From NCBI GenBank assembly GCA_040389905.1, contig JAZJZK010000004.1, positions 28,530 to 92,529 of the forward strand: a stretch of 64,000 nt of DNA, in the 5' to 3' direction. The stretch is from Gemmatimonadota bacterium (GTDB lineage: Bacteria; Gemmatimonadota; Gemmatimonadetes; Gemmatimonadales; Gemmatimonadaceae). Numbering within the stretch: position 1 is the first letter of the stretch; each line of letters begins with the position of its first letter. The notes beneath the pieces were generated by a model that saw only the letters and a list, made by a program, of their open reading frames with translations, searched no databases and was not told the DNA's origin. The position numbers and the translations under genes were made by a program. Shown one piece after another: positions 4,766 to 19,891 of the stretch.

Positions 4766-5422
4766 CTACGCTTTGTTGCCGGCGGCGAGTTCACCGAGCC
4801 GCACGCGCGCTTCCGTGGCGAGCGCCGGGTTATCCGACTGATTCGCCAATCCCTCGAACACCTTCTGCGCCTCGGCACGCTTTCCCGCCGCCAGGTAGGC
4901 TCGACCGGCCTTCGACAGGAGGAAGGTCTTTTCGTTCGTCAGCTTCGTGAGACCGGCCGCCTTTTCATACTGCGCAGCGGCCTCAGCCGTTTTGCCAAGC
5001 TGTTCGAGGGCGTCTCCGAGTAACCCGCCAACCGACGCGGCCGCCGGACCATCCCCCACCTTCGACGCCATCGCCTGCAAGAATGTCAGTGCGCCCTGGT
5101 TGTCGCCCTTCTCCAACCGGAGCTGCCCGATCAGCAAACCGGCCTCTGCGCCCGCCGGCTTGCTCCCGTACTTGTCGTACACCTTCTTCAGATCGGCCTC
5201 CGCCAACGGCGCATTCCCGGAACTCAGCGACTGCTTGGCCACGAGAAGCTGCTTGTCCGAATTGATCGTCTCGTTCATGGCGGTGCGCTGCATGAACCAG
5301 AACACGAACGCGGCGACGACGACCACTCCGCCTCCGATCGTGACTATCCGGGAGTTGACGTGGAACCAGTCGATGAAACTCTCAGCTTTTGGCTGGTCGG
5401 GATCGTGAATCGGGCTCGTCAT
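4766..5422 (-). CDS. Membrane-anchored tetratricopeptide repeat protein (YfgM-like)
   Basis: N-terminal TM helix followed by helical TPR-like repeats. Confidence 0.75.
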   Translation of the reverse strand: MTSPIHDPDQPKAESFIDWFHVNSRIVTIGGGVVVVAAFVFWFMQRTAMNETINSDKQLLVAKQSLSSGNAPLAEADLKKVYDKYGSKPAGAEAGLLIGQLRLEKGDNQGALTFLQAMASKVGDGPAAASVGGLLGDALEQLGKTAEAAAQYEKAAGLTKLTNEKTFLLSKAGRAYLAAGKRAEAQKVFEGLANQSDNPALATEARVRLGELAAGNKA

Positions 5423-5533: not shown

Positions 5534-6661
5534 CTAGGTGGTACCGCCCTCAAGTGAGGAAACCCCGTTCGCCGTCGAGCGGACCCATTGGGTGCCCGCT
5601 CCGATGTAGCCTTTTGCGCGAAGCGGCCGCTGCGGTTCGTAGACAACCTTGATATGGTGAAGCGAGAGAAAGATCGTACTGAGCGAGCGCCGATTGAGGA
5701 CCGCCGATGCCCGAAGCAGTGCGTCCGGCCAGACATCTCGGTGGTTCACCTCGTCCATCCACCCGTTGAACGCGGCGAGCGCCCTGCGCTTTTCAGGAAG
5801 GCACAGACCGTCGCGTTCGAGCTCGGCAAGCCAGACCGGCCAGCGCGGCTCCCGGAAATACGGTGTGGAGAACATCCCTTCGATCCCGATTCGGACAGCG
5901 ACCTCCTCGCCGACATCGAGGTCGAGAAGGAGGACGTCCGGAAGCTGAAAATGACGCTGGATAACCGCCCCCACCGCCGCAAGCGAACCGCGCCAGCCGA
6001 TCCGCGCGAGATACGGGACGATGTCCTCCGCCTTGATGTAGCTCACGACCAACCGCAATGCCGATGATGGCCGCTGCAGCATGGCGCCGACGTGCGTCAC
6101 ACTGGTTCCCGGAGGCTGTTCTGCGACGCACTTCTCGATCGTCGCGCGAGCCCGCGGTGACAAGCGCGCGCCGAGCAGAACGGGAAGCGCATCCTCAGTC
6201 AGCCATGGTCCGAAGGAACTCCCGCCGTCGATTCCCTCTGTCGGCCCAATGAAGACATTGGGTTCCGTTGGCAACTCCGAATCGGACCCATCATCCACGT
6301 CGAACTCCAGCCACATATTGCTCATGGTGCGCTCCAGGGCTGAGCCGGGCGACAACCAGCCGGCCGCGAGTGACTGGATACGTCCCCACGTCGAAGCTCC
6401 GCCGCCGGCTGGAGCGAAGGGATACGCCAGATTCTGTCCCGCGAGTGTTTCGCGCTCGCTCCCCTCCCCTCGAATCAGCACCAGCAAATCGGCGCGCGGC
6501 TCGGGCGAACCCAGCGGGCACTCGAAGCCGACTCGCGCGCTCAGCGTCCCAGGCATGTGGCGACAGATTCCCAATATCCTCGCCATGTTCTCGTGCGAGA
6601 TGAGCGCTGGCTGAATTCGGCCCACCACCGGCCGAAGCATCTGATCGAGTGTCCAGCTCAC
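5534..6661 (-). CDS. Hypothetical RiPP tailoring protein, putative ABBA-fold (aromatic/peptide) prenyltransferase
   Basis: GTG start at 6661 overlaps the cyclase stop (GTGA); motifs GFECPL, WLEFD, LDLDVG..RIGIE, HHIKVVY..AKGY; function inferred from motifs and context. Confidence 0.55.
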   Translation of the reverse strand: MSWTLDQMLRPVVGRIQPALISHENMARILGICRHMPGTLSARVGFECPLGSPEPRADLLVLIRGEGSERETLAGQNLAYPFAPAGGGASTWGRIQSLAAGWLSPGSALERTMSNMWLEFDVDDGSDSELPTEPNVFIGPTEGIDGGSSFGPWLTEDALPVLLGARLSPRARATIEKCVAEQPPGTSVTHVGAMLQRPSSALRLVVSYIKAEDIVPYLARIGWRGSLAAVGAVIQRHFQLPDVLLLDLDVGEEVAVRIGIEGMFSTPYFREPRWPVWLAELERDGLCLPEKRRALAAFNGWMDEVNHRDVWPDALLRASAVLNRRSLSTIFLSLHHIKVVYEPQRPLRAKGYIGAGTQWVRSTANGVSSLEGGTT

Positions 6662-7638
6662 GTCTGCATCGGTTCGGCAACGAAGCGACCGAGCACCGTC
6701 GCAATGGCCTGCGCGCAAACGACGGTGGTGAATACGCGAGCGCCGTAGAATTCAGGCAACATGTCGCGAAAAAAAGTCCCCGTCGCCCAGCCGCCGTCCG
6801 GCTGCTGCCGAGCGAGAAGCCAGTCAGCCGACTCCTCATCGCGCGGCCCTTCCGCGCCGGCGGAGAGCAGCGTCATGACCGCAAGCGCTGTTTCGAGATC
6901 ACTTCCCCACCCGCCATCCGCATGTTGGGTGTGTCGCAGCCATGCGATAATCGGGTTCATTGTGCCTTCCAACTCGGTGACTGCACCTCGCGCGAAGGCA
7001 CGAGCGATCAGGTACGGCACCGCGAAGCGAGCAACGCCCCAACGATTGAGGATGTGGTAGGTCGAGCGTGTTGCAATGTGGTGAAAGAACGCGATCAACC
7101 GTGGATCAGGCCGCTTGAGGAGCCCCTGTAGCAGGAGCACGTTGGCATTGACCATGGAGTCCGGCAGTTCGAAGTCATGGGCGTTGATCTCCGGATCTCG
7201 CCACGTCTTGAATAACCCACATTCGGCGCGCAGGGGCTCGAGCGAGTCGAGCCACGCGTTGGCTTGCGTCGCAATCCTTTCGTCACCTGGATTCGCGACA
7301 AGACGCGCGGCGTAGGAGACGGACGTCGTATCGAGATCCGGGAGACGCTCTGGAAAGGCTGGTCCGAAAAAGCGCCACCATCCATCGGACTCCTGCGTTC
7401 GAGCGAGGTAGGCGTCGGCGCGTCGGAGCATCGGCGTCGCCGCGGGCGCCCGTGGTTCCATCGCCGCGAGTGCATCGGCAACGATCGCGTGAAGGTAGGG
7501 AGACTCGATGCGGCGCGCGCCAACCAGTCGCGGCGCGCTCGACACCTCGGTACGGAAGCCACCATCGGTCGACTGCGCATTCGCGAGAAAGGACAACGCG
7601 CGATCCATTGCATCCGTCAGCTTCGAATGACTCGGCAA
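6658..7638 (-). CDS. Monodomain class II terpene cyclase / prenyltransferase-squalene oxidase repeat protein
   Basis: Four QW-type repeats (AQSTDGGF, TQESDGWW, TQHADGGW, RQQPDGGW) and PDLDTT (DxDD-like) motif; TTG start with AGGAG RBS. Confidence 0.8.
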   Translation of the reverse strand: MPSHSKLTDAMDRALSFLANAQSTDGGFRTEVSSAPRLVGARRIESPYLHAIVADALAAMEPRAPAATPMLRRADAYLARTQESDGWWRFFGPAFPERLPDLDTTSVSYAARLVANPGDERIATQANAWLDSLEPLRAECGLFKTWRDPEINAHDFELPDSMVNANVLLLQGLLKRPDPRLIAFFHHIATRSTYHILNRWGVARFAVPYLIARAFARGAVTELEGTMNPIIAWLRHTQHADGGWGSDLETALAVMTLLSAGAEGPRDEESADWLLARQQPDGGWATGTFFRDMLPEFYGARVFTTVVCAQAIATVLGRFVAEPMQT

Positions 7639-7764
7639 TCTCGACTCCTGACTCGCGCGCTGTGCACGCGGTGTGATCTACTACATTGAATTGTCGCGAA
7701 TGGCGAACTAACGTTGGCCCGACAGAAACGAACGTCAAGCCGCCATAAGCTCTGAGGTACAGTC

Positions 7765-8085
7765 ATGGACGACAAGGTACAATCGCGGAAAGATCTGGAA
7801 GCGAAACTCGTCGAGCTCGCACAAAAGGACGAGCAGTTCGCAGAAGCCCTTCGTCGCAATCCTCGCGCGGCGATCGAAAAGGAAATCGGCGCGCTACCCG
7901 AAGGCATGAACGTGAAGGTCATCGAAGAAGACGCAAACACCTTCTACCTGATCCTCCCACCGGCGGAGCAGACCGGCGACTTCGCCCTCTCCGAGGAAGA
8001 TCTCGCTTCGGTCGCGGGTGGATTGGGTGGACATACGGCAACGTGCTGTGGGTGCGTCGGCACGAACTGGCCGAAGTCAAAGTAA
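7765..8085 (+). CDS. NHLP-leader RiPP precursor 1 (core LGGHTATCCGCVGTNWPKSK)
   Basis: Leader motifs A.KDEQF...L..NPRAAIE, VKVIEE..NTFYLILP, LSEEDLASVAGG; GAGG RBS. Confidence 0.92.
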   Translation: MDDKVQSRKDLEAKLVELAQKDEQFAEALRRNPRAAIEKEIGALPEGMNVKVIEEDANTFYLILPPAEQTGDFALSEEDLASVAGGLGGHTATCCGCVGTNWPKSK

Positions 8086-8095
8086 CTGGCTCGCG

Positions 8096-8132
8096 CGAAC
8101 GCTCCCCAAATCGGGGGCGCGCTCGTTTTTTT
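8096..8132 (+). terminator. Intrinsic terminator-like hairpin after precursor 1
   Basis: CGCTCCC-CAAATC-GGGGGCG stem followed by a T7 tract at 8126-8132. Confidence 0.6.
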
Positions 8133-8185
8133 CTCGGCGTCGTATTCGCGCTCGCGCGCCGCCCCACACCTTCAGAGGCACAGTC

Positions 8186-8500
8186 ATGGACGAAAAAGTA
8201 CAGTCGAGAAAGGATCTGGAAGCGAAACTCGTCGAGCTCGCACAGAAGGACGAGCAGTTCGCGGAAGCCCTTCGCCGCAATCCTCGCGCTGCGATCGAGA
8301 AGGAGATCGGCGCGCTACCCGAAGGCATGAACGTCAAGGTCATCGAGGAAGACGCCAACACCTTCTATCTCATTCTTCCGCCCTCCGAGGAAACGGGCGA
8401 CTTTGCGCTCTCAGAGGAAGATCTCGCCTCGGTCGCAGGTGGTGCACACACGGCAAGCTGCTGTGGCTGCACCGGCACGAACTGGCCGCAGTCGAAGTAA
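8186..8500 (+). CDS. NHLP-leader RiPP precursor 2 (core AHTASCCGCTGTNWPQSK)
   Basis: ATG at 8186 with GAGG RBS; 86-aa leader nearly identical to precursor 1, ending VAGG. Confidence 0.92.
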   Translation: MDEKVQSRKDLEAKLVELAQKDEQFAEALRRNPRAAIEKEIGALPEGMNVKVIEEDANTFYLILPPSEETGDFALSEEDLASVAGGAHTASCCGCTGTNWPQSK

Positions 8501-8520
8501 CCGACTCTCATGCCGATGGT

Positions 8521-8560
8521 GCGGGCGCGCTCCCACAGCGGGGGCGCGCCCGTTGCTTTT
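8521..8560 (+). terminator. Hairpin terminator between precursor 2 and the convergent lanM
   Basis: 14-bp stem GCGGGCGCGCTCCC-ACAGC-GGGGGCGCGCCCGT followed by TGCTTTT. Confidence 0.7.
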
Positions 8561-8568
8561 CGCCGCCG

Positions 8569-11500
8569 TCAGCGACGCCACGCGAGGACGCATGGAAGGC
8601 GTCCCGGGAACGCCTGACGAAGCAGCGCGTAGCCAACGCCGGCACTGCCCTGAAAGAAACCGGGAAAGAGGGCTTCCCGCGGCAATCCTGGCAACAGCTC
8701 ATAGCTGCCGGCGTCCGCCTTTTCGAGAACGCGACTTGTCAGCTCCCGAGCCTCCGCCGCGAGATCCGCGCGCCCGAGATCGACCGCTGCTTCGAGGAGA
8801 ATGTCCGCCCTCCCCATGTTCCCGCAACACAGTTGGTCTACGCCTTCAAGTCCGTGGGCGCGCGTCGTGGACAGTGCAATGTCCAAGTCTTCACGCACTG
8901 CTGCGGTGTCGAGCGCGTGGAGTCCCACAAGACGCCCGAGTGCGATGCCGGGAGCGCCATGACACCACGACGTCCAGATCGAGGGACCTCCATCCGGCGC
9001 TGATTCGCCGAGTCGCGGCCAGTTGCCGTGGGCGGTCAGGAACAGCGTGCGCTCGTACGCTACGGCCTGCTCGGCTGCCGTGACCAGCGTCTCATCCGGC
9101 CCGAGGGCGTGCACTCGCAACAGCGCTGCGGCAATGCCAGCCGCCCCGTGTGAAAAGCCGGCGAACGGAAGGTCACGGATCGTATTCCACGCACGTAGTC
9201 CCTGCCCCGGAACGACGCTTTTCGCAACGAGGTGACGAGCACACAGCTGCGCGCGCGCGAGGGCGTTCACGTCCCCGGATGCCTCGTAGAGCGCAAGCAA
9301 TCCGAGCGCCGCGCCCGCACTTCCGGCAATCACATCGAGCTGTGTGTCGGCCGCGACGATCGTCTCGTCAATGAGCGTTGCCGCCGTACGTGCCGCGTTC
9401 AACAGCAATGGTTCACCCAGCCACTCGCCAACCAGGGTAAGAACGTAGATCGTGGAGCCAATGCCATCTGCTCCGCCAATCCCTACGGCTGAGCGAAGAC
9501 GTTGGGGCTGGCGATGCAACTCCTCACGAAGCGGTTGAAGTGCCTCCAATGCCCACGTTCGCCATTCCTCCGACGCCGTGATGCGCCACAACGCCGCGAA
9601 GAAGAGTCCCACACCGGCACATCCGCTGTAGAGACCGTAACCCAGCGGATGCATTTCGTAACGCCCTGCCTGCGGGAAAAACTGCACGGCGATCCACGAT
9701 GCGCCGCCGTGCGGTGCACGCACGGCGTTGTTGACCAGCTCGCGAGCGATGGCAACCGCGCGAGCCACGAGCATCTCCGGCTCGAGCGTTCCAGAGGGTC
9801 GTGCTGCAACGGCGGGCGAAGCGACGGTATCACTCGGGCGCGGCTCCCGCGCCACGCGAAGGTGCAGTGTCGCACGAATGAACGAGACTTGGCGCTCGCA
9901 GTCCTCGAGGCTCAGCGCCGCGATTCTCGCCCGTGCGCGCGCTGCAGGTGAGACCCCGAAGCAGTCTGGCACTTCCCCATGTTCGCCCAGCGGAAGCGAC
10001 CTGGAACCAGCATTCGCGACGAAGAGCGGAATATCCGCGCGCTCGAGTGCCTCGGCCTCGGCTTTCCGCACGGGCCAGAAAGCGTGCAGTGACGGATTCT
10101 CAACGAGGATTCTGCTCGGCGCATCGATCGCCGTGGATCGATCGACACCATCGCGAAGCAACGTCCGATTGTAGGATGCGTTCAGGTTGAGGAAGTACTC
10201 GCGCGTCGCCCGGAACAGGAAACGCACCCGCTCACTCTCGAGCCCTTCCAATGGGCCACCGCGATCGAGAAGCGCGTCGCGATTACGCAGCAACAATTGG
10301 TAAAGCCCGCGGAAACCTTTGACGAGAGAGTCGGCATAGTCCACCGGTGACAACGCGCGGTCGTCCAGGATGACAACGTTTTGCTGCGGCTGTGCATCCA
10401 CGTGTTCACGGACGAGACGCATGTCGTCGGTGTTTGGATGTTGCCACGTGGCCATCCGATCGAGCGTCTTCTGATCGCCGCCACCCCCGAGGGCGCTGAT
10501 GTCTTGACTGCTTCCATCTGGTCCGAATACCCAGCGCGGGAGCAGGCCGACTGACAGCACCGTGTCTGCGAGCATTCGGTCGGCGACGACGAATGCCGTG
10601 GGCTCCTGCTCAGCCCCACCATTGAGCGGACGCTCTTCGTGCGAGACCAGCATCTCGAGGTCAATGAGCATCGGTTGCTCGCCGCTCGCCACGAGGTTCT
10701 GGTCGTGGAGGTCCGTTGTGCCAAGCGCATGCATGAGCGCGAGGATCATTCCGGCGCGCTCATAGTATCGTTCCGCCTCGGCGACGTCAGCACAGGCGCG
10801 CTGTTCGGCGAACTCCACCCAGCCGTGGGTTGGCCTGGCGAGAACCTTGAGTGGCCGAAGCGGCGGCGACGCACCGCGATCATTGGCCCACTGCAGCAAC
10901 CGGAACCAGCGGGACTCCAACGCCAAATCGCGCGGTTTGTAAACGACACGCAACCCAGAAGCAAATGTCACAATTGCCACAGTACGCCCGCCGCTGTGCG
11001 CATCGGAAAGTCCAGCGTTCGCCGACACGACGCCGCCAATGTCCACCCCGTCGGCGAAGAGCGCTTGAATATCGTTCTTATCTGCAACGAGCCGATCGAT
11101 TGTCTCCTGTGTCACGTCAATCCACTGATCAGTCACCGTGGCGGTGAGGCGCGCGGCAACGGGAAAGCGTCTGAAGAATTCGGTCAGCCCTCCGGTGCGC
11201 ATCCGCTCCAACCAACGCCTGTAGAGGTGCTGCGGCGGGGTGCGCTTCCCCGCGAGTCCGCGCTCGAGGGGTGATTGCTGCGCCGCGCGAAATGCGAAGA
11301 ACTCCTGGACGAGCGCGTTGGCGCAGATGCTCGAGATCGAGCGTAGCAGGTCCTGCTCGAAGGCGGCGAGCGCGACGTCCGACATGGTGCTCGCCCTGGT
11401 GCGTGCTGCGAGGCGAGTCCGTGCGAAACGCACGAACGGGAGAAGCGCCTCCTCCATCGGGACCGGGCGCAGCGGATCCATACTGCGGTCCGTTTCTACC

Positions 11501-11802
11501 CATGACTCGTCGGATAGCACGGCAGCGAGTGTCGCGGTCCACGCGGGGAGCGGCGTGTCCGCTGGAAGACGCACCTTGCCGAAGAGTCGGCGCGCGTCGG
11601 CGGGTGTCAAACCATCCATCGCCAGACGGCGCTCGAACAGGGCTTGGTCTCCACCGGCAACGAAGCGACGCCACCGTTCGAATCGCGAGTCGACGTCGGC
11701 CGCACGCGCTGGCTCGTCTTCGAGAATGGTGCCAACGGCGAGCCGCTCCGTGAGAGAAGTAGCGCGCGCGACTATCTCCCTCAGCTCCGCATCGGACAAC
11801 AT
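8569..11802 (-). CDS. lanM: Class II lanthipeptide synthetase LanM
   Basis: Dehydratase motifs VYKPR, DLHDQN, LIDLE, RFLFRATREY; cyclase motifs GLYSG.AG, GFSHGAAG, SWCHGAPG, LCCGNMG, GFFQGSAGVGY. Confidence 0.95.
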   Translation of the reverse strand: MLSDAELREIVARATSLTERLAVGTILEDEPARAADVDSRFERWRRFVAGGDQALFERRLAMDGLTPADARRLFGKVRLPADTPLPAWTATLAAVLSDESWVETDRSMDPLRPVPMEEALLPFVRFARTRLAARTRASTMSDVALAAFEQDLLRSISSICANALVQEFFAFRAAQQSPLERGLAGKRTPPQHLYRRWLERMRTGGLTEFFRRFPVAARLTATVTDQWIDVTQETIDRLVADKNDIQALFADGVDIGGVVSANAGLSDAHSGGRTVAIVTFASGLRVVYKPRDLALESRWFRLLQWANDRGASPPLRPLKVLARPTHGWVEFAEQRACADVAEAERYYERAGMILALMHALGTTDLHDQNLVASGEQPMLIDLEMLVSHEERPLNGGAEQEPTAFVVADRMLADTVLSVGLLPRWVFGPDGSSQDISALGGGGDQKTLDRMATWQHPNTDDMRLVREHVDAQPQQNVVILDDRALSPVDYADSLVKGFRGLYQLLLRNRDALLDRGGPLEGLESERVRFLFRATREYFLNLNASYNRTLLRDGVDRSTAIDAPSRILVENPSLHAFWPVRKAEAEALERADIPLFVANAGSRSLPLGEHGEVPDCFGVSPAARARARIAALSLEDCERQVSFIRATLHLRVAREPRPSDTVASPAVAARPSGTLEPEMLVARAVAIARELVNNAVRAPHGGASWIAVQFFPQAGRYEMHPLGYGLYSGCAGVGLFFAALWRITASEEWRTWALEALQPLREELHRQPQRLRSAVGIGGADGIGSTIYVLTLVGEWLGEPLLLNAARTAATLIDETIVAADTQLDVIAGSAGAALGLLALYEASGDVNALARAQLCARHLVAKSVVPGQGLRAWNTIRDLPFAGFSHGAAGIAAALLRVHALGPDETLVTAAEQAVAYERTLFLTAHGNWPRLGESAPDGGPSIWTSWCHGAPGIALGRLVGLHALDTAAVREDLDIALSTTRAHGLEGVDQLCCGNMGRADILLEAAVDLGRADLAAEARELTSRVLEKADAGSYELLPGLPREALFPGFFQGSAGVGYALLRQAFPGRLPCVLAWRR

Positions 11803-11811
11803 CGCGTGGTC

Positions 11812-13287
11812 CTAGGGATTCGTGTAAGCGCGGACCGACTGGCCCGTGTCTGCTCGATAGCGCACCACGGCATTCACGAGGTCGAACCACGCGCGCGCCT
11901 CCTCGAACTCTGCCTGTGACTCTTGCTCCTCGTACTGAAGAAGGCGGAAGATATCCGAAAGTCCCAGAGCGAGTCGCTCGCGCTCCCCCTCATACTGCTC
12001 CCGCGCGAGCCGCATTGCCTCGGTACTGCGGGTCAACCGCTGGCGTCCAATCGTGATGCCGCGATACGCGGACCGAACTTCCACGCGGGTGGCATTCTCT
12101 GCCTGCAGGAGCGCCAACGAAGCGCCTTTCGCAATGGCATCCGCGCGCTCGGCTTCTGCCTTGGCCGCATGGTTCCCGATTGGGTACGTGACGAGAAGTC
12201 CCGCGCGCCAGTCGGTCAACCGTGCCTCATTCGCATCACGCGCCGAGAATCCGGCGGCGTCTCTCGTGAACGCGAGCGTGGAAAACCCTGCGGCCAGCCC
12301 AACGGACGGCCGAAGGTTGTCGCGTGCGAGGTCCAGCAACACGCGGCTTTGATCCAACTCGCTTCGCGCCACGGCGATATCCGGCCGCTCGGTCAGCGCG
12401 GCGCTCACCGTCGTACCAAGTGGAGGCAATTCGGGAATGACGACTGCCGTATCGACCGCGAGCAGAAACTCGTCGTCCTTGAGCAATTCTGCGGGCGCGT
12501 TCTCTCCATACACCGCAAAGACCAGCGCATCCTGTGCATCATGCCGTGCCTGCATGAGCCTCAACAGCGCCGCCTGGCGAGAGGTAACGCCAAGTCGAGC
12601 GGTCGTGAGGTCGATCTCCGTGATCCGGCCGATGCGACGCAGTTCGAGGTTCGCCACGAGCAGATCCTCAGCCCGTTTGAGCGAGCGTTCTTCTACGGCC
12701 TGCGCCCGTTCCTGCTCGACGAGTAGGTAATACGCCGCTTCGATACGCGCTACCGTCTCGTTCTGGATTTGCGCCAGGCGGGCGCGCGCGGCATCGACGC
12801 CGAATTCCGCGGCGCGCGTCGGAGCCGTGGTCGCTCGGCTGCGGAATCCGCGCAGCAGCGGCTGCACCACGCTGGCCGAGAAAGTGTTCTGGGCGAGCGG
12901 TTCTCCGGGGAGCGCAGACTGGAAGCCCGTGCCGACCTGATAGGTAGTGCCGGTGCGCAACGCACCCTGCACCGCTCCCGTGTAAAGCCGACTCGCCAAC
13001 TCGGAGCTTTGGCCGGCCAGCACGCGTCCATTGGAGGTGTAGGTCGGTCCAATCTGAATGGCCGGATCGAACGCCGATTGCGCGGCAAGGACGGCACTCG
13101 ATGACGCACGCGCGCTGACGCCCGCCTGACGAACATCGAGGTTTCGCTGCAGCGCGATGCGCACCATGTCTGCGAGACGAATGCGGAGCGTGTCGTCGTG
13201 CACCGATTCGTCATGCGCCGGTTGAGCCATCGCGCGACTGGCCAGGAGCGACGCGAGAAGAATCGCGGCAGCGTGTCGTCGCGTCAT
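11812..13287 (-). CDS. TolC-family outer membrane efflux protein
   Basis: Signal peptide, ALQRNLD, ERPDI..AR, repeated OEP halves; coupled to the ABC genes. Confidence 0.88.
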   Translation of the reverse strand: MTRRHAAAILLASLLASRAMAQPAHDESVHDDTLRIRLADMVRIALQRNLDVRQAGVSARASSSAVLAAQSAFDPAIQIGPTYTSNGRVLAGQSSELASRLYTGAVQGALRTGTTYQVGTGFQSALPGEPLAQNTFSASVVQPLLRGFRSRATTAPTRAAEFGVDAARARLAQIQNETVARIEAAYYLLVEQERAQAVEERSLKRAEDLLVANLELRRIGRITEIDLTTARLGVTSRQAALLRLMQARHDAQDALVFAVYGENAPAELLKDDEFLLAVDTAVVIPELPPLGTTVSAALTERPDIAVARSELDQSRVLLDLARDNLRPSVGLAAGFSTLAFTRDAAGFSARDANEARLTDWRAGLLVTYPIGNHAAKAEAERADAIAKGASLALLQAENATRVEVRSAYRGITIGRQRLTRSTEAMRLAREQYEGERERLALGLSDIFRLLQYEEQESQAEFEEARAWFDLVNAVVRYRADTGQSVRAYTNP

Positions 13288-16193
13288 GTGGTCTGCCGAG
13301 CCGCCAGCTTGGCGAACAGACCATCGCGCGCCACGAGGTCTTCGTAACGACCCTCCTCCACAATGCGGCCTTCGTGCATGCTGAAGATGCGATCGGCGTT
13401 CCTGATGGTGGAGAGACGATGCGCGATCACCACGCGAGTCGCCTGAAGCCGCTCGAGACTCTTGCTCACGGTTTCCTGCGTCCGGTTGTCGAGGGCACTT
13501 GTTGCTTCGTCGAAGAAGATGATACGCGGCTTCTTCACGAGGGCTCGCGCGATCAGCAGCCGCTGACGCTGGCCACCCGACAACGCCGTCGCGCCCTCAC
13601 TGAGCACCGTATGCATTCCCATTGGCATGAGCCGAATGTCATTCGCAAGTCCCGCCATCTCCGCCGCCTCCCACACGTCGTCCAGACTCAGCGGAGCCGC
13701 GCCCGCGATGTTGGTGAAGATGTCACCGGCGAGGATGCGACTCTGCTGTAACACAACGGCACATTGGCTGCGGACCGCTGAGACGTCCACGGAGGAAAGG
13801 TCCTGCCCGTCAAAGATGACGGCTCCACGCTCGGGACGTTCGAAGCCTAGGAGGAGCCGCAGGATGGTGGACTTCCCTGCCCCTGATGCGCCAACGAATG
13901 CCACGAATTCGCCTGGCCGTATCTGGAATGAGACGTCCGAGAGGATGGGCGGCCCGTCGGCGAGATAGCGGAACGTGACGTGTGATACCTCGATCCGTCC
14001 GGTCAAGAGGCCCGGGTCGGGCTTGAGCTCGTCCACCTCGGGCGGCGTGACCAGGATCGGCCGTGCGCGCTCCAACATCGGAATGATGTTCAGCAGACTG
14101 ACGGCTGTGGTACTCATCTGCGTGCCAGCGGTCAGGAACGCACCGAACGCCGCATAGAACGCCATGAAGTCTCCGGTCGAAAGCGTCTGGCCGGCCCCGG
14201 CGTCCGAGCCGGAGATGAACACGAGAAAGAGGACGATCGCCGCGACCGTCGGAAGCGTTTCGTTGAACACGGTGACGGCCGCCTGACTGAGCCCCATGCG
14301 GTAGGACACCGCCTTCTGGTCGCGGAAGATGGCGCCCCACACGGCAAAGGCACGACGCTCAGCGGCCGCGACGCGAAGCTTCGCGATGCCGCCGAGGATC
14401 TGGAAAAGCAGCGCGCCCACTCGTCCCTGTATTTCCTGCCGTTGTCGCTCGAGCCGGAGGGTGTGCACACCTAACGCGCCAGTGACGAGGACAGAGACGA
14501 CGAACACGCCAAGTGCGACGAGCGCCAACTTGCCGCTGTACTTGATCATCAGAAACAGGTTTGCCACTACGAGCATGCCGCCGAGCAACGCAGTGATGGC
14601 GGCGCCGCTGAGGAGTTCTCGCACGCCGTTGATGGCCCCCGCACGAAGCGACAGATCGCCGACGCTGAAGCGCCGGAAGAATGGGACCGGAAGCGCGAAC
14701 AACCGATCCACGAGTGCGGCTTGGAGCGTCGCGTTGGAACGTCCTTCGAAGCGCACGAGCGCCATCGCGCGCGCGAGATCCACCAGGCCGCCGCCAATCG
14801 CCATACCAGCCAGTGCGCCAAACAACGCGAGCGCATTGCTGATCTGCGCACTCGGAATGACGGCGTCGAAAATCTTCTGCGTGGAGATCGGAAGCGCGAG
14901 ACTCAGGAGGCTCGATGCCACCGCAAACAGCAGAACGCGTCGAAGATCGATCCATGCCTCGATGCCCGCCACGCGGGCAAGCACTTTGAGATCGATCGGT
15001 CCACTCGGCGCGGGGCGGTAGAACATGTATCCCACCGCCTCGAGCGTGCCGGCCACTTCCTTCGTCACGATTTCACTCGTTCCGGTGGCTGGGTCGCGGA
15101 GCGTGTAGATCCCTTCGACCGAGGAGAGCAGCGCGACGGGAGCATTCCCTTCCGAACGGTAAGCGAGGAGGGGCCCGCAATCCGTGCTCCACCACTCGCC
15201 GCGCAGGACCACCCGCCGATGGCGGACGCGCGAAGCCCGACAGATCGCGCCGAGGCGGTCGCGCCAACGTCCGCTCTCCTCCCAGCTTGGCGGCGCCCGG
15301 AAAACGATGCGTGCGGAATCACCAACAAGCCGACACGCCGCGAGCAGCGGATCCGACGTTTCGAGCAACGGTGGAGCAGCGCCGCGGGAGGTGCCGAGGA
15401 CACTCGCGAGGCCAGTCATGCTCAGCGCCTCGAGTTCTCGCTCCTGATCCGCCTTCCGTCGCAGCCGCTCGCGATCGGCCTGCATCGCGCTCGCGGTACC
15501 TTTCGCCGCCCAGGAGAGAAACGCGCCGCGGACGATCTTCAGCGCCGGCCGCACATTGCCGTGTGCCAAGGCGTTTTCGGTGCTCACCGCGGTGAGCGTG
15601 GCCTTGGCAGACGTGACGGAGTACCACATGCCGCGCGCCAACGGCAGCGCGGCGCTAGCCTCCAGAGGCACATCATTGGCGAAGGCAAGCTCGCCGTCGC
15701 TGGCAGAAATCCAGCACACTGCGCGCGGCGCTCCAACCGACGCAGCGCGTTGGAGGCTGAGCGGTTCCGCGTCGAGTTCGATATCCACCACTGGTCCGTG
15801 CGACGTGGCCGCCATCGCGCGGGCGAACGTTTCAGCGACTCGCTCGGCAAGCGGTGCCGACCAGCCGCTGTGATCGTCGAGCGCCGATTCCGGAACCGCA
15901 CGGATCCGAGCCGCGCCGGCCGCAACAGCGATCAGCGTCGCGGTGCCGTCTGTGGTGCCTCCGCCGAGGACCACCTCGTTCGCCCAGAGCGTCGTGAGAA
16001 AGTGGAGCGGCCCGAATTCGCCGTCCGGCCTCTTTTCCGCGAAAAAGATGTCGACTTCACCCTTGAGCACGACCCAGAGTGTGTCCGGATCATCGAGTGG
16101 GAGTGGCGTGTTCCCGGGTAGCGTGCGCACTGCCCCCGGCAATGCCGCGTCGCTCAGTTGCGGCTGGATGAGGTCTGACCTCGCTTGGCGCAC
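13284..16193 (-). CDS. NHLP bacteriocin system ABC transporter, permease/ATP-binding protein (no peptidase domain)
   Basis: Long N-terminal region with L.G.WW..D.GPLL, TM domain, Walker A GASGAGKS, LSGGQRQR, FDEATSALDN; GTG start at 16193 inferred from GGGAGAG RBS. Confidence 0.9.
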   Translation of the reverse strand: MRQARSDLIQPQLSDAALPGAVRTLPGNTPLPLDDPDTLWVVLKGEVDIFFAEKRPDGEFGPLHFLTTLWANEVVLGGGTTDGTATLIAVAAGAARIRAVPESALDDHSGWSAPLAERVAETFARAMAATSHGPVVDIELDAEPLSLQRAASVGAPRAVCWISASDGELAFANDVPLEASAALPLARGMWYSVTSAKATLTAVSTENALAHGNVRPALKIVRGAFLSWAAKGTASAMQADRERLRRKADQERELEALSMTGLASVLGTSRGAAPPLLETSDPLLAACRLVGDSARIVFRAPPSWEESGRWRDRLGAICRASRVRHRRVVLRGEWWSTDCGPLLAYRSEGNAPVALLSSVEGIYTLRDPATGTSEIVTKEVAGTLEAVGYMFYRPAPSGPIDLKVLARVAGIEAWIDLRRVLLFAVASSLLSLALPISTQKIFDAVIPSAQISNALALFGALAGMAIGGGLVDLARAMALVRFEGRSNATLQAALVDRLFALPVPFFRRFSVGDLSLRAGAINGVRELLSGAAITALLGGMLVVANLFLMIKYSGKLALVALGVFVVSVLVTGALGVHTLRLERQRQEIQGRVGALLFQILGGIAKLRVAAAERRAFAVWGAIFRDQKAVSYRMGLSQAAVTVFNETLPTVAAIVLFLVFISGSDAGAGQTLSTGDFMAFYAAFGAFLTAGTQMSTTAVSLLNIIPMLERARPILVTPPEVDELKPDPGLLTGRIEVSHVTFRYLADGPPILSDVSFQIRPGEFVAFVGASGAGKSTILRLLLGFERPERGAVIFDGQDLSSVDVSAVRSQCAVVLQQSRILAGDIFTNIAGAAPLSLDDVWEAAEMAGLANDIRLMPMGMHTVLSEGATALSGGQRQRLLIARALVKKPRIIFFDEATSALDNRTQETVSKSLERLQATRVVIAHRLSTIRNADRIFSMHEGRIVEEGRYEDLVARDGLFAKLAARQTT

Positions 16194-16194
16194 G

Positions 16195-18393
16195 CTAGCT
16201 CTCCCGGGCGAGCGTGGCATACAGGCCGTCCGGATCACGCATCAGCGTGTCGTGCGTGCCTCGCTGTACCACAGCACCTTCCTTGAGCACAACGATTTCG
16301 TCGGCATCGCGGATCGTCGACAGCCGGTGCGCGATGATGACGCATGTGCAGCCGCGCCGACGCAAGCTCCTGTCGATTTTGTGCTCGGTGACCGAGTCGA
16401 GCGCGCTCGTGGCTTCGTCCAGCACCAGCAGCCGAGGAGAAAGCACCAACGCGCGTGCAATTTCCAGCCGTTGCCGCTGGCCGCCGCTGAAGTTGGCTCC
16501 GGCTTCCTCGACCTGGCTCTCGTACGCGCCCGGCCGAGACATGATGTCGTCGTGAATCGACGCATCGCGGCAGGCCTGCATGAGCACCGCCTCGGGAACC
16601 GTCGAGTCCCAGAGGGTCAGGTTCTCGCGGATGGTCCCGGCAAACAGCGAAATCTCCTGGTCCACCAGCGCGACAGAATTCGCGAGCACGCGTCGCGGCC
16701 ACGCCGTACGCGCCTTGCCGTCGAACAGCACGTCCCCTTCCCACGGGTCGTAGAGACCCGTAGCCAGTCGTGCCACTGTGCTCTTTCCGCAGCCCGACGG
16801 GCCAACGAGCGCAACACGACGCCCCGACCGCATGCGTAAATCAAAGTTCTTGAGCAGCGGCGCCGCCTGCCTCGAATAACCGAAGGTGACACTGCGGAGC
16901 TCGAATGCCCCTTCGAGCCGGTCTTCCGCGCCTTCCTGATCCTCTGCCGCGGTGAGCCCAATCCGGCTGTCCGCCGGGTATTCCAACACGTCCTGCACTC
17001 GTTCCATGTTGCCGTGCATTTCCTGGACGGAGCTCGCGAGCTGCACGAACGACGCGACGGGTTGAAGGAAGCTGGCCATCAAGCTCTGAAACGCGACGAG
17101 CATTCCAATGGTGAGATCACCCTCGATGACGCGATACGCGCCGAACGTGAGGACGATCGCATTGGTCATGGTGATCGTGAACGCCGGCACCACGAGGAAG
17201 GATTGCGTGACACGCGCCAACGACTGTTGCGCCATGAGATACTTCGCCTGATAGCCGGCCCATCGCGCGAACACGTCACTTTCCGAAGCGCCGGCCTTGA
17301 GCGTCTCGATCGCGCTGAGTCCTGCCATCAGTGTTCCCGTGGACTTTCCTGCCTCCTGCAGCACGCGGCGATTGCCGTCGACTCTGCGCCGGTTGACGAC
17401 GACCGTCGATCCCGCCAGCACGGCGACCGCCAGCACGCCGAACAGGGTGAGCAGCGGATCGTACGCCAACATCAAGGCGGCGTAAAACACGACGAGCAGG
17501 GCGTCGATCGCCGTCGAGGCCAGCTTGCGCGACACGAATTCCGAGATGGTGTCGTTGATCGCCACACGCGAGCTGATCTCGCCGCTGTAGCGTTGCGCAT
17601 AGAACTCGACAGGAAGCCGGAGCAGATGCGAGAGGAAGCGACTCGAGGAGCTGATGGAAAGCTTCGTATCGAGCCGCAACAGGTAGTAGTGTTGCAGCCA
17701 CCCGAGGGCCGCGCGCACGACGGCGGTCAGCCCCATGCCCAGCAGCAGCGGACGGAGCCAGTCGCGCAGGTTATGCACGAGCACCTGATCGACGAACACC
17801 TGCGTGAATGCAGGAAGCGCGAGTCCCGGTACGACCAGCGCGAGGCCGGCAAGCAGCGCAAACGTCAGGGCATTCTCGGAACCGCGGACACGCTCGCGCA
17901 GGAGCGCGACGAGATTTGGCGGCGCGCCACCCGGCGTGAATTCGGATGTGCGCGCGAACTCGAGGACGACTCCAGTGAAGCCCTGATCGAACTCGTCCTT
18001 CGTGATGCTATAGGGGCCCTGCGCCGGGTCGTTGAGGTAGTAGCGATCGTCGAGGACGCCCTCGAGGACGAGAAAGTGATTGAAGTTCCAGAAGACGATG
18101 GCTGGAAATACGGTGCGGCCCATGTCCTTCAGCTCGCGCCGGAACCCCTTCGCCTCCAGTCCGTAACTTCGTGCAGCTCGCAAAAGAACCGCGGCGTTCG
18201 AGCCGTCGCGCGAAACACCGCAGGCAATGCGCAACTCCTCGAGTGGCACGCGACGTCCGTGAAACGCGAGCACCATTGCGAGTGAGGCTGCACCGCACTC
18301 GACCGCCTCCATTTGGAGGATGGTCGGCGTTCTGACACGCGTACCTTCTGGGCGGCGGGGGAAAAACGCCCGCAGCCGCTGCAGCCTAGACAC
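16195..18393 (-). CDS. NHLP bacteriocin system ABC transporter with C39 peptidase domain (LanT-like)
   Basis: TPTILQMEAVECGAASL, CGVSRDGS, WNFNHF, NDPA.G; Walker A GPSGCGKS; FSGGQRQR; start approximate. Confidence 0.93.
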   Translation of the reverse strand: MSRLQRLRAFFPRRPEGTRVRTPTILQMEAVECGAASLAMVLAFHGRRVPLEELRIACGVSRDGSNAAVLLRAARSYGLEAKGFRRELKDMGRTVFPAIVFWNFNHFLVLEGVLDDRYYLNDPAQGPYSITKDEFDQGFTGVVLEFARTSEFTPGGAPPNLVALLRERVRGSENALTFALLAGLALVVPGLALPAFTQVFVDQVLVHNLRDWLRPLLLGMGLTAVVRAALGWLQHYYLLRLDTKLSISSSSRFLSHLLRLPVEFYAQRYSGEISSRVAINDTISEFVSRKLASTAIDALLVVFYAALMLAYDPLLTLFGVLAVAVLAGSTVVVNRRRVDGNRRVLQEAGKSTGTLMAGLSAIETLKAGASESDVFARWAGYQAKYLMAQQSLARVTQSFLVVPAFTITMTNAIVLTFGAYRVIEGDLTIGMLVAFQSLMASFLQPVASFVQLASSVQEMHGNMERVQDVLEYPADSRIGLTAAEDQEGAEDRLEGAFELRSVTFGYSRQAAPLLKNFDLRMRSGRRVALVGPSGCGKSTVARLATGLYDPWEGDVLFDGKARTAWPRRVLANSVALVDQEISLFAGTIRENLTLWDSTVPEAVLMQACRDASIHDDIMSRPGAYESQVEEAGANFSGGQRQRLEIARALVLSPRLLVLDEATSALDSVTEHKIDRSLRRRGCTCVIIAHRLSTIRDADEIVVLKEGAVVQRGTHDTLMRDPDGLYATLARES

Positions 18394-19642
18394 CAAGCCA
18401 CCTGCGCAGCGCTGGGATGACCAGCGCAATCGGCGCTCGGCGTTGAATCACGATCTTTCCGTCCAGAAGCGTTCCACTGCCGAAGGTCATCGGTGGTCCG
18501 TCGCCGGTCGTCCACGCGAACCCACTTGGCGTCGCTGGATTTCGGTCTACCGTCACGTCCACGAGGTATGCGCCGCCGCGCGACGTGAACTGGTTGACCA
18601 ACACGTCATTCTTCAGGTAGCGATGAAGCGCCGTGCCGCTGATCGGTGCCAACGAGACGGAATGGACGGTTCCCAGGAAGTAACCGCTTTCCTCTGGCTT
18701 GACGCCGCCAGGAACCATTTCGACGCGCATCCCCGGACGTATCCGCTTCCCTTCCAGCGGAATAAAGAGCGAGACCTGAATGGGTACCGTCGACGACTCC
18801 AGCGTGACGATCGGTGTGTGGCTGGAAATTGCCTGACCGGCATCGACGAGTTGCTCCACCACGACGCCGTCGTAGGCGCTGGTTACGTTGGCCGCCGCCG
18901 CGAACTGTTCCTTCTGCGCCGCCAACCGGTGCTCCGCCTCCCAGATCTGCTGGTCGAGCGTGAAGACCGTTTGACTGCTCTGGCTCGTCAGTTGAGAGAC
19001 TCTGGCGGCGAGTTCCTGCTTCCGCGCCAACGCCCCCATGAGTTGTTGCTCGGATTCACCGCGCTGTGCGATGGTGCCCTGCGCCGCATCGGGCGTCAAC
19101 AGTCCGCGCTTGAGCGCTTGTGCCTCCAGCGCGATCCGATCATCCAGGTACTTCACCCGGTCGCGAGCGGCGACGATTGTCGCGTCCGCCTGCTTTTGCT
19201 GCTGGTCGATCGACGCGAGCTCGAGGCGCTTGCTGGACTGGACGAAGGGCACCGTCGCGGCGCGGTTTCGGCGCAGCTGTTCGAGGGTGACCTCTGTCTG
19301 CGCCACGGCGGTTTGCAACTCGGGCTGTGCGAGGATCGCGACCACCTCCCCTTTGTGCACTGGCGTGCCGGGCCGCGCGACCATCTGTTCGATCTGCCCG
19401 GCGCCATTGGATTGGACCCGGAACAATCCGCCTTCACGAATCATCAGGCCGGATCCGGCGATGGCCTCGGGGATTCGCCCGAACACTCCCCAACTCAGGG
19501 CCCCAACGACCACAGCACCAAGCGCTGCCAGTGCCATCCAGCCCTTGAGGGTAGTGACCTCCATGAGCGTGTCCAACCGCTCCGGGCTGGACAGTCGCTC
19601 GAGCGCCACAGCGCGAAAGAGGCGGCGCGGGTTGCCAGCCAT
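18386..19642 (-). CDS. NHLP bacteriocin system HlyD-family secretion protein
   Basis: LFR..ALERLSSPE.LD N-terminus, TM helix, coiled coil, PI.LVIP C-terminus. Confidence 0.92.
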   Translation of the reverse strand: MAGNPRRLFRAVALERLSSPERLDTLMEVTTLKGWMALAALGAVVVGALSWGVFGRIPEAIAGSGLMIREGGLFRVQSNGAGQIEQMVARPGTPVHKGEVVAILAQPELQTAVAQTEVTLEQLRRNRAATVPFVQSSKRLELASIDQQQKQADATIVAARDRVKYLDDRIALEAQALKRGLLTPDAAQGTIAQRGESEQQLMGALARKQELAARVSQLTSQSSQTVFTLDQQIWEAEHRLAAQKEQFAAAANVTSAYDGVVVEQLVDAGQAISSHTPIVTLESSTVPIQVSLFIPLEGKRIRPGMRVEMVPGGVKPEESGYFLGTVHSVSLAPISGTALHRYLKNDVLVNQFTSRGGAYLVDVTVDRNPATPSGFAWTTGDGPPMTFGSGTLLDGKIVIQRRAPIALVIPALRRWLGV

Positions 19643-19744
19643 GATGGAGGTTTCCGGGCTCCGCAGGCGAGGCCTCGGAGCGTGCTAGAGACGAATGCTG
19701 TCGTTGGGAGAGATGGAAACCGACGACGTCGTGCGGATAGGAAA

Positions 19745-19818
19745 TACCCTCGGGCGGACTCGAACCGCCGGCCAACGGTTTAGGAAACCGCTGCTCTATC
19801 CACCTGAGCTACGAGGGC
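19745..19818 (-). tRNA. tRNA-Arg (anticodon CCT), CCA not encoded
   Basis: GCCCTCGTAGCTCAGGTGGATAGAGCAGCGGTTTCCTAAACCGTTGGCCGGCGGTTCGAGTCCGCCCGAGGGTA folds as a cloverleaf. Confidence 0.95.
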
Positions 19819-19891
19819 AACGACTTCCCTCAAACTAGCAAGAGCGTTCGCCGCGCGGAACACTCGTTTGTGATGCGAGAACCTCGAGTCA

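Follow-up and report, generated by a model that had tools for sequence, protein, structure and literature searches.

Prenylation of a lanthipeptide by a stand-alone enzyme is known from the mpp cluster, which encodes the LanM enzyme MppM, the precursor MppE, a separate prenyltransferase (MppC) and a separate 'terpene synthase' (MppD) (PMC11791876). According to PMC12715784, the substrate of MppC is the MppM-cyclised peptide, whose Trp it geranylates at indole C5; the enzyme depends on the leader in cis, will not take free Trp as a substrate and prefers a C10 donor; its Trp336 and Phe340 bind the leader, into which Phe340 inserts. The same text credits Chekan and Piel with macrocyclisation before lanthipeptide prenylation, and we linked this credit to Hubrich et al. 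(Chem 2024, 10:3224), the sole reference found with both authors. The NctPC (steromaze) pathway of that paper was followed through the accessible parts of PMC13290415, PMC12715784, PMC13647313 and PMC12545887. According to the first of these, NctPC unites an ABBA transferase of low similarity to the cyanobactin enzymes with an MstE-like cyclase and puts a C20 chain on Trp; ChrPC is a transferase resembling isoprenyl diphosphate synthases (IDS) fused to a cyclase, and accepts C10 to C20 donors; both transfer first and then cyclise. Here we describe a cluster for a ribosomally synthesised and post-translationally modified peptide (RiPP) at positions 5534–19642 of a 64,000-nucleotide stretch of DNA from a Gemmatimonadota bacterium (hereafter the window), in which a LanM, two NHLP (proteusin-type) precursors, a stand-alone prenyltransferase and a free-standing class II terpene cyclase lie together. 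Our analysis indicates that the LanM probably closes thioether rings, after which the transferase would prenylate a Trp, the cyclase would cyclise the chain and the product would be exported.

The transferase is a protein of 375 residues encoded at 5534–6661 on the minus strand. It matched no Pfam or NCBIfam model at E 0.1, and PDB sequence searches with the protein or its profile gave no meaningful match. An AlphaFold2 model built on 114 homologues (predicted local distance difference test, pLDDT, 94) was compared with 48,161 solved chains. The 19 best matches were all ABBA prenyltransferases (Z 16.2 to 11.0, root-mean-square deviation [rmsd] 4.1–4.9), and the next row stood at Z 6.4; the top match aligned over 301 residues (Z 16.2, rmsd 4.5), and Foldseek agreed. 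All seven residues that are invariant in the family (E47, E119, D121, R203, K338, K350, Y352) are kept. The window transferase is 34% identical (123/363 columns, E 4e-55) to a protein of another locus, L200, which has Trp336 and Phe340 and adjoins a Nif11 precursor with the core ACWRWSG, a LanM and a halogenase, as published for mpp. We equated the L200 protein with MppC by these published features, not by accession. The MppE core was found in 2 of 30 cyanobacterial loci of the transferase family, and a scan with the MppE-core pattern returned eight chance matches, none of them with a transferase, cyclase or leader match. Judged by the model and by homology, the 375-residue protein is an ABBA-fold peptide prenyltransferase.

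The family to which it belongs is large, with 2588 representatives at E 0.001, and occurs in 45 of 301 genomes of one cyanobacterial order. Its members are also found fused to 2-oxoglutarate (2OG)-Fe(II) oxygenase, methyltransferase, FAD-binding and sulfotransferase domains (P0006, P0008, P0091, P0092, P0069, P0095, P0148, P0176, P0099, P0111), and this points to additional modification of the prenyl group or the core. Among 19 loci of the family from GTDB genomes, 17 carry an NHLP precursor (13 loci), a LanM (9 loci) or an NHLP exporter. A Trp was present in 25 of the 26 complete cores from the 13 loci with NHLP precursors, where Trp frequencies of 1.3 to 3% would predict 7–13 (the count leaves out two incomplete precursors, and paralogues are not independent). 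By these sequence associations, the transferase family goes with RiPPs and, for the most part, with Trp.

The two precursors of the window show the same pattern. Precursor 1 (106 residues, 7765–8085, plus strand) has the core LGGHTATCCGCVGTNWPKSK, with an alternative cut after a second Gly-Gly, and precursor 2 (104 residues, 8186–8500, plus strand) has the core AHTASCCGCTGTNWPQSK. Both exceed the cut-off of TIGR03793 (50.9 bits), with 71.3 bits for the first and 70.1 bits for the second, which was scanned as a longer ORF (open reading frame) starting at 8018. The two are identical at 83 of their first 86 residues. After the double Gly, each core (18–20 residues) holds three Cys, four or five Ser/Thr and one Trp, and ends in the common tail GTNWP.SK.

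The cyclase gene (6658–7608, minus strand, ATG at 7608) lies upstream of the transferase gene, and its TGA overlaps the GTG start of the latter in the letters GTGA. Transferase and cyclase are two ORFs, each with its own start and stop, and not one polypeptide as in NctPC and ChrPC. The cyclase has 316 residues, QW repeats and a PDLDTT motif, and scores 49.9 bits on PF13243. Its AlphaFold2 model (pLDDT 93) is a single alpha6-alpha6 barrel that best matched the cyclase domain of drimenol synthase (Z 32.9, rmsd 2.1, 285 residues aligned), followed by two monodomain myxobacterial or actinobacterial cyclases (Z 28.0 and 27.7) and by MstE (Z 27.1, 22% identity); glycoside-type barrels scored lower (Z 20.6 and less). 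MstE uses DxD instead of DxDD, according to the accessible part of PMC12324236, and the D91-L-D93-T-T of the window cyclase aligns with D107-A-D109-T-T of MstE; it is Asp109 that carries the mutation in the MstE structures with substrate or product bound. The ORF is intact and keeps the residues invariant in its clade. The window cyclase is the sole squalene-cyclase-type match in this genome, in which no two-domain squalene-hopene cyclase was found; identity as a squalene-hopene cyclase was itself rejected, as the protein has a single domain and scores 48 bits against a cut-off of 431. A squalene-synthase-like gene lies elsewhere in the genome (G000:C2:21809-22687, L115; TIGR01559 98 bits, below the cut-off).

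In a tree of 31 cyclase domains, the window cyclase grouped (100/99) with five metagenomic proteins of 40–44% identity, outside the clade that holds most domains fused to ABBA transferases. Closest to it is the C-terminal domain of P0188 (44%), one of these five and a 656-residue fusion; its N-terminal part resembles the isoprenoid-synthase fold, a lead that is weak (21% of one cluster). Scanning metagenomes with the cyclase as query gave no relative. Fission of an NctPC-type gene was rejected on gene order and on the tree. On these sequence relationships, the pair brings together components of two kinds of maturase rather than being a divided NctPC.

The LanM gene (8569–11802, minus strand) encodes 1077 residues with 819.5 bits on TIGR03897 (cut-off 304). 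It has the dehydratase domain (PF13575) and the LanC-like cyclase domain (PF05147) of a class II synthetase, and the GFSHG, WCHG and CCG motifs are all kept. A second LanC-like stretch elsewhere in the genome (G000:C31:11955-13019) matches the C-terminal part of the LanM at 33%. Upstream of the LanM gene on the same strand lie the genes of the export system: a TolC-type outer membrane efflux protein (11812–13287, PF02321 123 bits); an NHLP exporter with ABC permease and ATPase (13284–16238, TIGR03797 875 bits, cut-off 709); a C39-ABC NHLP exporter with leader peptidase (16195–18429, TIGR03796 1044 bits, cut-off 853; PF03412); and an HlyD-type secretion protein of the NHLP system (18386–19642, TIGR03794 284 bits, cut-off 156). 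The ends given for the two ABC genes are those of the longest ORF, and their starts are possibly later. The cluster thus has a C39 exporter, Gly-Gly leaders and cores with Cys and Ser/Thr, as in class II lanthipeptide clusters, and exceeds the cut-offs of all four NHLP models. A terminator-like hairpin of 14 pairs lies between the convergent precursor 2 and LanM genes (8521–8553, plus strand); another after precursor 1 (8100–8119, plus strand) is weak, with 5 sites against 3.0 ± 1.9 in shuffles. No sigma-70 promoter match was found between the divergent precursor and cyclase genes, and no prenyl-diphosphate synthase lies within the cluster.

Most of this had been anticipated in the initial annotation, which was made from the sequence alone. 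Profile matches for HlyD, C39-ABC, ABC, TolC, LanM and the two NHLP precursors bore out the gene content, places and strands it gave; the translations contain the cores it described; and it had correctly noted the coupling of a QW-repeat cyclase to a protein that no family model recognises, as well as the lack of a donor synthase among the cluster genes. Its enzyme assignments and the chemistry that it proposed are also well supported by the predicted ABBA fold, the homology of MppC type, the cyclase fold with the acid motif of MstE and the prevalence of Trp in the neighbouring cores.

The claim that such a combination is undescribed did not hold, as mpp already has a LanM, a separate prenyltransferase and a separate terpene synthase. 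Prenylation after ring formation is likewise known for MppC (PMC12715784), and the stand-alone arrangement recurs in 12 of the 19 GTDB loci. The window resembles mpp in its LanM, in its stand-alone ABBA prenyltransferase of the same family with a separate barrel gene adjoining, in its long leader ending in Gly-Gly and in the Trp of its cores. The mpp cluster differs in having a Nif11 leader, a one-ring core of seven residues, a halogenase, arginases and an oxygenase, whereas the window has NHLP leaders, three Cys, a free 316-residue cyclase and a C39 exporter of its own.

Beside the transferase that matches MppC lies a gene (L200 11121-13271, minus strand; in a second locus, L201 10226-12376, minus strand) for a protein in which a cyclase-type barrel with the motif TADDS is joined to a flavin amine-oxidase-type domain. 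The L200 barrel is distant kin of the window cyclase (hhalign 95%, E 2.6e-8). We infer that this flavin-barrel gene is mppD, whose flavin domain could oxidise or epoxidise the prenyl chain before cyclisation. Our literature search found no report of MppD activity.

With NctPC, as it is described in the sources accessible to us, the window shares an ABBA transferase and an MstE-like cyclase, which in the window would likewise act on Trp after ring closure, and homologues of the window transferase are fused in the same way in Nostoc. NctPC differs in being one polypeptide that uses geranylgeranyl diphosphate (GGPP), whereas the window has separate enzymes, a cyclase of another clade and no GGPP synthase that could be found. 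The NctPC precursor is reportedly a proteusin (NHLP) as well. The likeness to ChrPC, again by its description, is one of architecture with P0188, the closest relative of the window cyclase, and the kinship is a lead; unlike ChrPC, the window lacks an IDS-fold transferase. MstE (PDB 6SBB; PMC12324236, accessible part) shares the single alpha6-alpha6 barrel and the DxDTT acid motif; its substrate differs, being the small molecule geranylgeranyl dihydroxybenzoate and not a peptide. No activity report was found for a free-standing RiPP cyclase, in a search that was thin on subscription journals.

Arrangements among relatives were varied. No transferase in the 19 GTDB loci carries a fused cyclase (their open frames reach at most 497 residues). 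The barrel gene that 12 of the 19 loci carry separately encodes a DxD-type cyclase in three of them and a more divergent protein with a T/C-x-D-S motif in nine. Of the three loci with a DxD-type cyclase, L013 and L015 have no LanM match, and L017 has a LanM and Cys-free cores. The cyanobacterial loci L013 (3677-5814) and L015 (11147-13293) encode the transferase and a DxDD cyclase separately, together with a radical SAM enzyme and short cores that contain Trp. The T/C-x-D-S proteins (L001 3389-5215, L004 9962-11815, L006 9574-10788; further members in L008, L009, L010, L011, L012, L019 and L161) are about 600 residues long, with a barrel part of 400, and one is fused to a transferase in P0045. 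They are distant kin of class II cyclases, gave no Pfam match in the three members scanned, and are possibly a divergent cyclase family.

A C-terminal cyclase fusion was seen in 9 of the 34 long transferase homologues scanned, one of which clusters with Nostoc proteins. Among 400 other genomes of the window's phylum, 17 had a cyclase match, 16 of these 17 also had a transferase match, and the transferase matched alone in 14 more genomes; these counts come mostly from two families of kin. The four phylum loci examined, from the two families of kin, have a leader-fused cyclase and no LanM match, and their genomes hold LCCCW precursors. In relatives whose cores lack Trp (LCCCG or LSCCA), the transferase is retained and no cyclase match appeared (L080-L083; L117, L118, L121, L122, L124 and L128 cover both groups). 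Loss of the Trp may accompany loss of the cyclase in this phylum. In the window's order, L159 (11278-13443, genome G353) has a fused transferase-cyclase of 721-749 residues with the motif DADST, and no NHLP leader, LanM or exporter match in 20 kb; by eye, its upstream region shows a small PqqD-like ORF and an ORF for a short peptide, an arrangement that would suit a lasso-type cluster. The exact set of the window (LanM, Cys-rich NHLP cores, free DxD cyclase, free transferase) was found in none of the other loci examined. We concluded that similar clusters are already known from cyanobacteria and that this one is a compact variant.

The 14.2-kb cluster sits between a tRNA-Arg(CCT) gene (19744–19819, minus strand, found with ARAGORN, 102 bp upstream of the HlyD gene) and a TPR gene (4766–5422). 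Of 29 same-genus loci, 28 have the same tRNA gene upstream of their TPR gene, within 150 bp in 25; the 29 include L059 (genome G012), and the outcome is the same without it. The cluster is an insertion behind tRNA-Arg. The site also took an insertion of about 1.3 kb in L052. No integrase was found in the cluster, and a duplication of the tRNA attachment site at the far end was rejected, the best match being 10 bp, a length reached by 66 of about 2000 random stretches of the window. No anomaly of composition was found (cluster GC 0.640, flanks 0.632–0.634); GC at third codon positions is slightly lower in the enzyme and precursor genes (0.68–0.74) than in seven flanking genes (0.75–0.81).

The genome, which is 84.6% complete, has one long-chain and one short-chain prenyl synthase. 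The short-chain enzyme scores 274.4 on the model of farnesyl diphosphate (FPP) synthase (cut-off 275) and 252.9 on CrtE (cut-off 460). It has a Tyr five residues before the first Asp-rich motif, which we take to be a signature of FPP synthases, and by its sequence it is likely an FPP synthase. A GGPP synthase was not found at this level of completeness. Because the short-chain synthase looks like an FPP synthase, FPP or geranyl diphosphate (GPP) is a likelier donor than GGPP. The initial annotation suggested use of the host pool of prenyl donors; a geranylgeranyl chain is not the obvious one for this cluster.

From the gene identities, folds, intact motifs, homology and co-occurrence given above, we infer the chemical steps, their order, the donor and the site as follows. 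By its family function, the LanM would dehydrate Ser and Thr and add the three Cys, giving up to three (methyl)lanthionine rings. Reasoning from MppC, the ABBA transferase would bind the NHLP leader and move a prenyl group from the host pool, probably from FPP or GPP and less likely from GGPP, to the indole of the single Trp in the ring-closed core. By analogy with MstE, NctPC and ChrPC, Asp93 of the cyclase would then protonate the terminal alkene, and the chain would cyclise, possibly closing onto the indole. The C39-ABC protein would cut the leader at Gly-Gly, and the ABC, HlyD and TolC proteins would export the product. As to chain length, we put forward only tentatively, and with some doubt, that it is C15: an MppC-type transferase would farnesylate the Trp of a lanthipeptide with three rings, and the cyclase, recruited from the clade of IDS-type fusions, would make a drimane-like bicycle, in trans on the peptide or, ahead of transfer, on free FPP.

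Several observations weigh against this pathway. The structural scores of the transferase are moderate (template modelling [TM] score about 0.5, rmsd 4.1–4.9). The leader-binding Trp336 and Phe340 of MppC align to Arg317 and Val321 in the window transferase; among the 114 homologues, the Phe340 column holds Leu in 45, Phe in 28 and Val in 6. The cyclase groups with P0188 and is not a split half of an NctPC-type fusion, so that its cooperation with the window transferase is assumed. Six loci in the window's phylum pair the transferase with Trp-free cores (LCCCG, LSCCA), and two cyanobacterial transferase neighbours also have no Trp in their cores, which means that the family is not always directed at Trp. 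The transferase occurs in 4 of 36 same-genus genomes, within other RiPP clusters, and these four show no cyclase in the stretches fetched, some of which end at contig ends; the transferase thus often works without one.

The best-placed alternative, which we consider unlikely, is that the product is a linear prenyl-Trp lanthipeptide, as made by MppM and MppC alone, and that the cyclase is a late recruit which is inactive, acts poorly on this substrate or merely adds water. The same-genus clusters without a cyclase would fit it, as would a cyclase lineage that differs from the ABBA-fused cyclases, the apparent absence of a GGPP synthase from the incomplete genome, and the C10 donor preferred by MppC (accessible text of PMC12715784), which would leave little to cyclise. 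Set against it are the intact cyclase ORF with its clade-invariant residues and MstE acid motif, and the translational coupling of the cyclase to the transferase.

Quite improbable, in our judgement, is a reversed order in which the cyclase acts first on free FPP (or GGPP), giving a cyclic diphosphate, for example drimenyl diphosphate, whose finished ring system the transferase then attaches to Trp. The best structural match, a cyclase domain that acts on FPP and scores above MstE, argues for it, and so do a free-standing cyclase that has no evident means of binding the leader and a host short-chain synthase that looks like an FPP synthase. The comparison by sequence profile points the other way, with MstE (E 1e-79) far above drimenol synthase (E 1e-22), although the profile includes MstE-like fused domains; and both NctPC and ChrPC transfer before they cyclise, as described in the accessible text of PMC13290415. 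Highly improbable is a separate small-molecule meroterpenoid unit that neighbours the lanthipeptide genes by chance and whose acceptor is free Trp or some other aromatic compound, or a pair that modifies a residue other than Trp: the pair does lie on the far side of the precursors and is transcribed away from them, its nearest solved folds are small-molecule indole prenyltransferases, and some family members adjoin Trp-free cores, but 17 of the 19 family loci are RiPP clusters, the pair lies within the same insertion as the RiPP genes, and MppC does not accept free Trp (PMC12715784, accessible text).

We therefore return to prenylation of the ring-closed core followed by cyclisation as the probable pathway. 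What sets it apart is the minimal cluster, the free-standing cyclase from a clade that holds a fusion to a different transferase fold, the host with probably just an FPP synthase and the insertion behind tRNA-Arg. The first reports of cyclised terpenes on such peptides date from 2024 and, in the accessible literature, concern fused enzymes only; the cluster extends this known chemistry and opens no new class. Should the chain prove to be C15, the cluster would yield an indolo-sesquiterpenoid lanthipeptide, whose ring type is absent from the accessible literature (cyclised C20 and C25; ChrPC donors C10–C20), and the cyclase would serve as a portable means of cyclising prenylated peptides. With its three enzymes and a core of 18 residues that contains a single Trp, the cluster makes a clean test system for the action of a free-standing cyclase on a prenylated peptide, for the order of steps and for chain length. 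If the cyclase acts, the transferase and cyclase would form a portable pair for placing rigid lipids on macrocyclic peptides, and the many separate barrel genes beside the transferase family would have a role.

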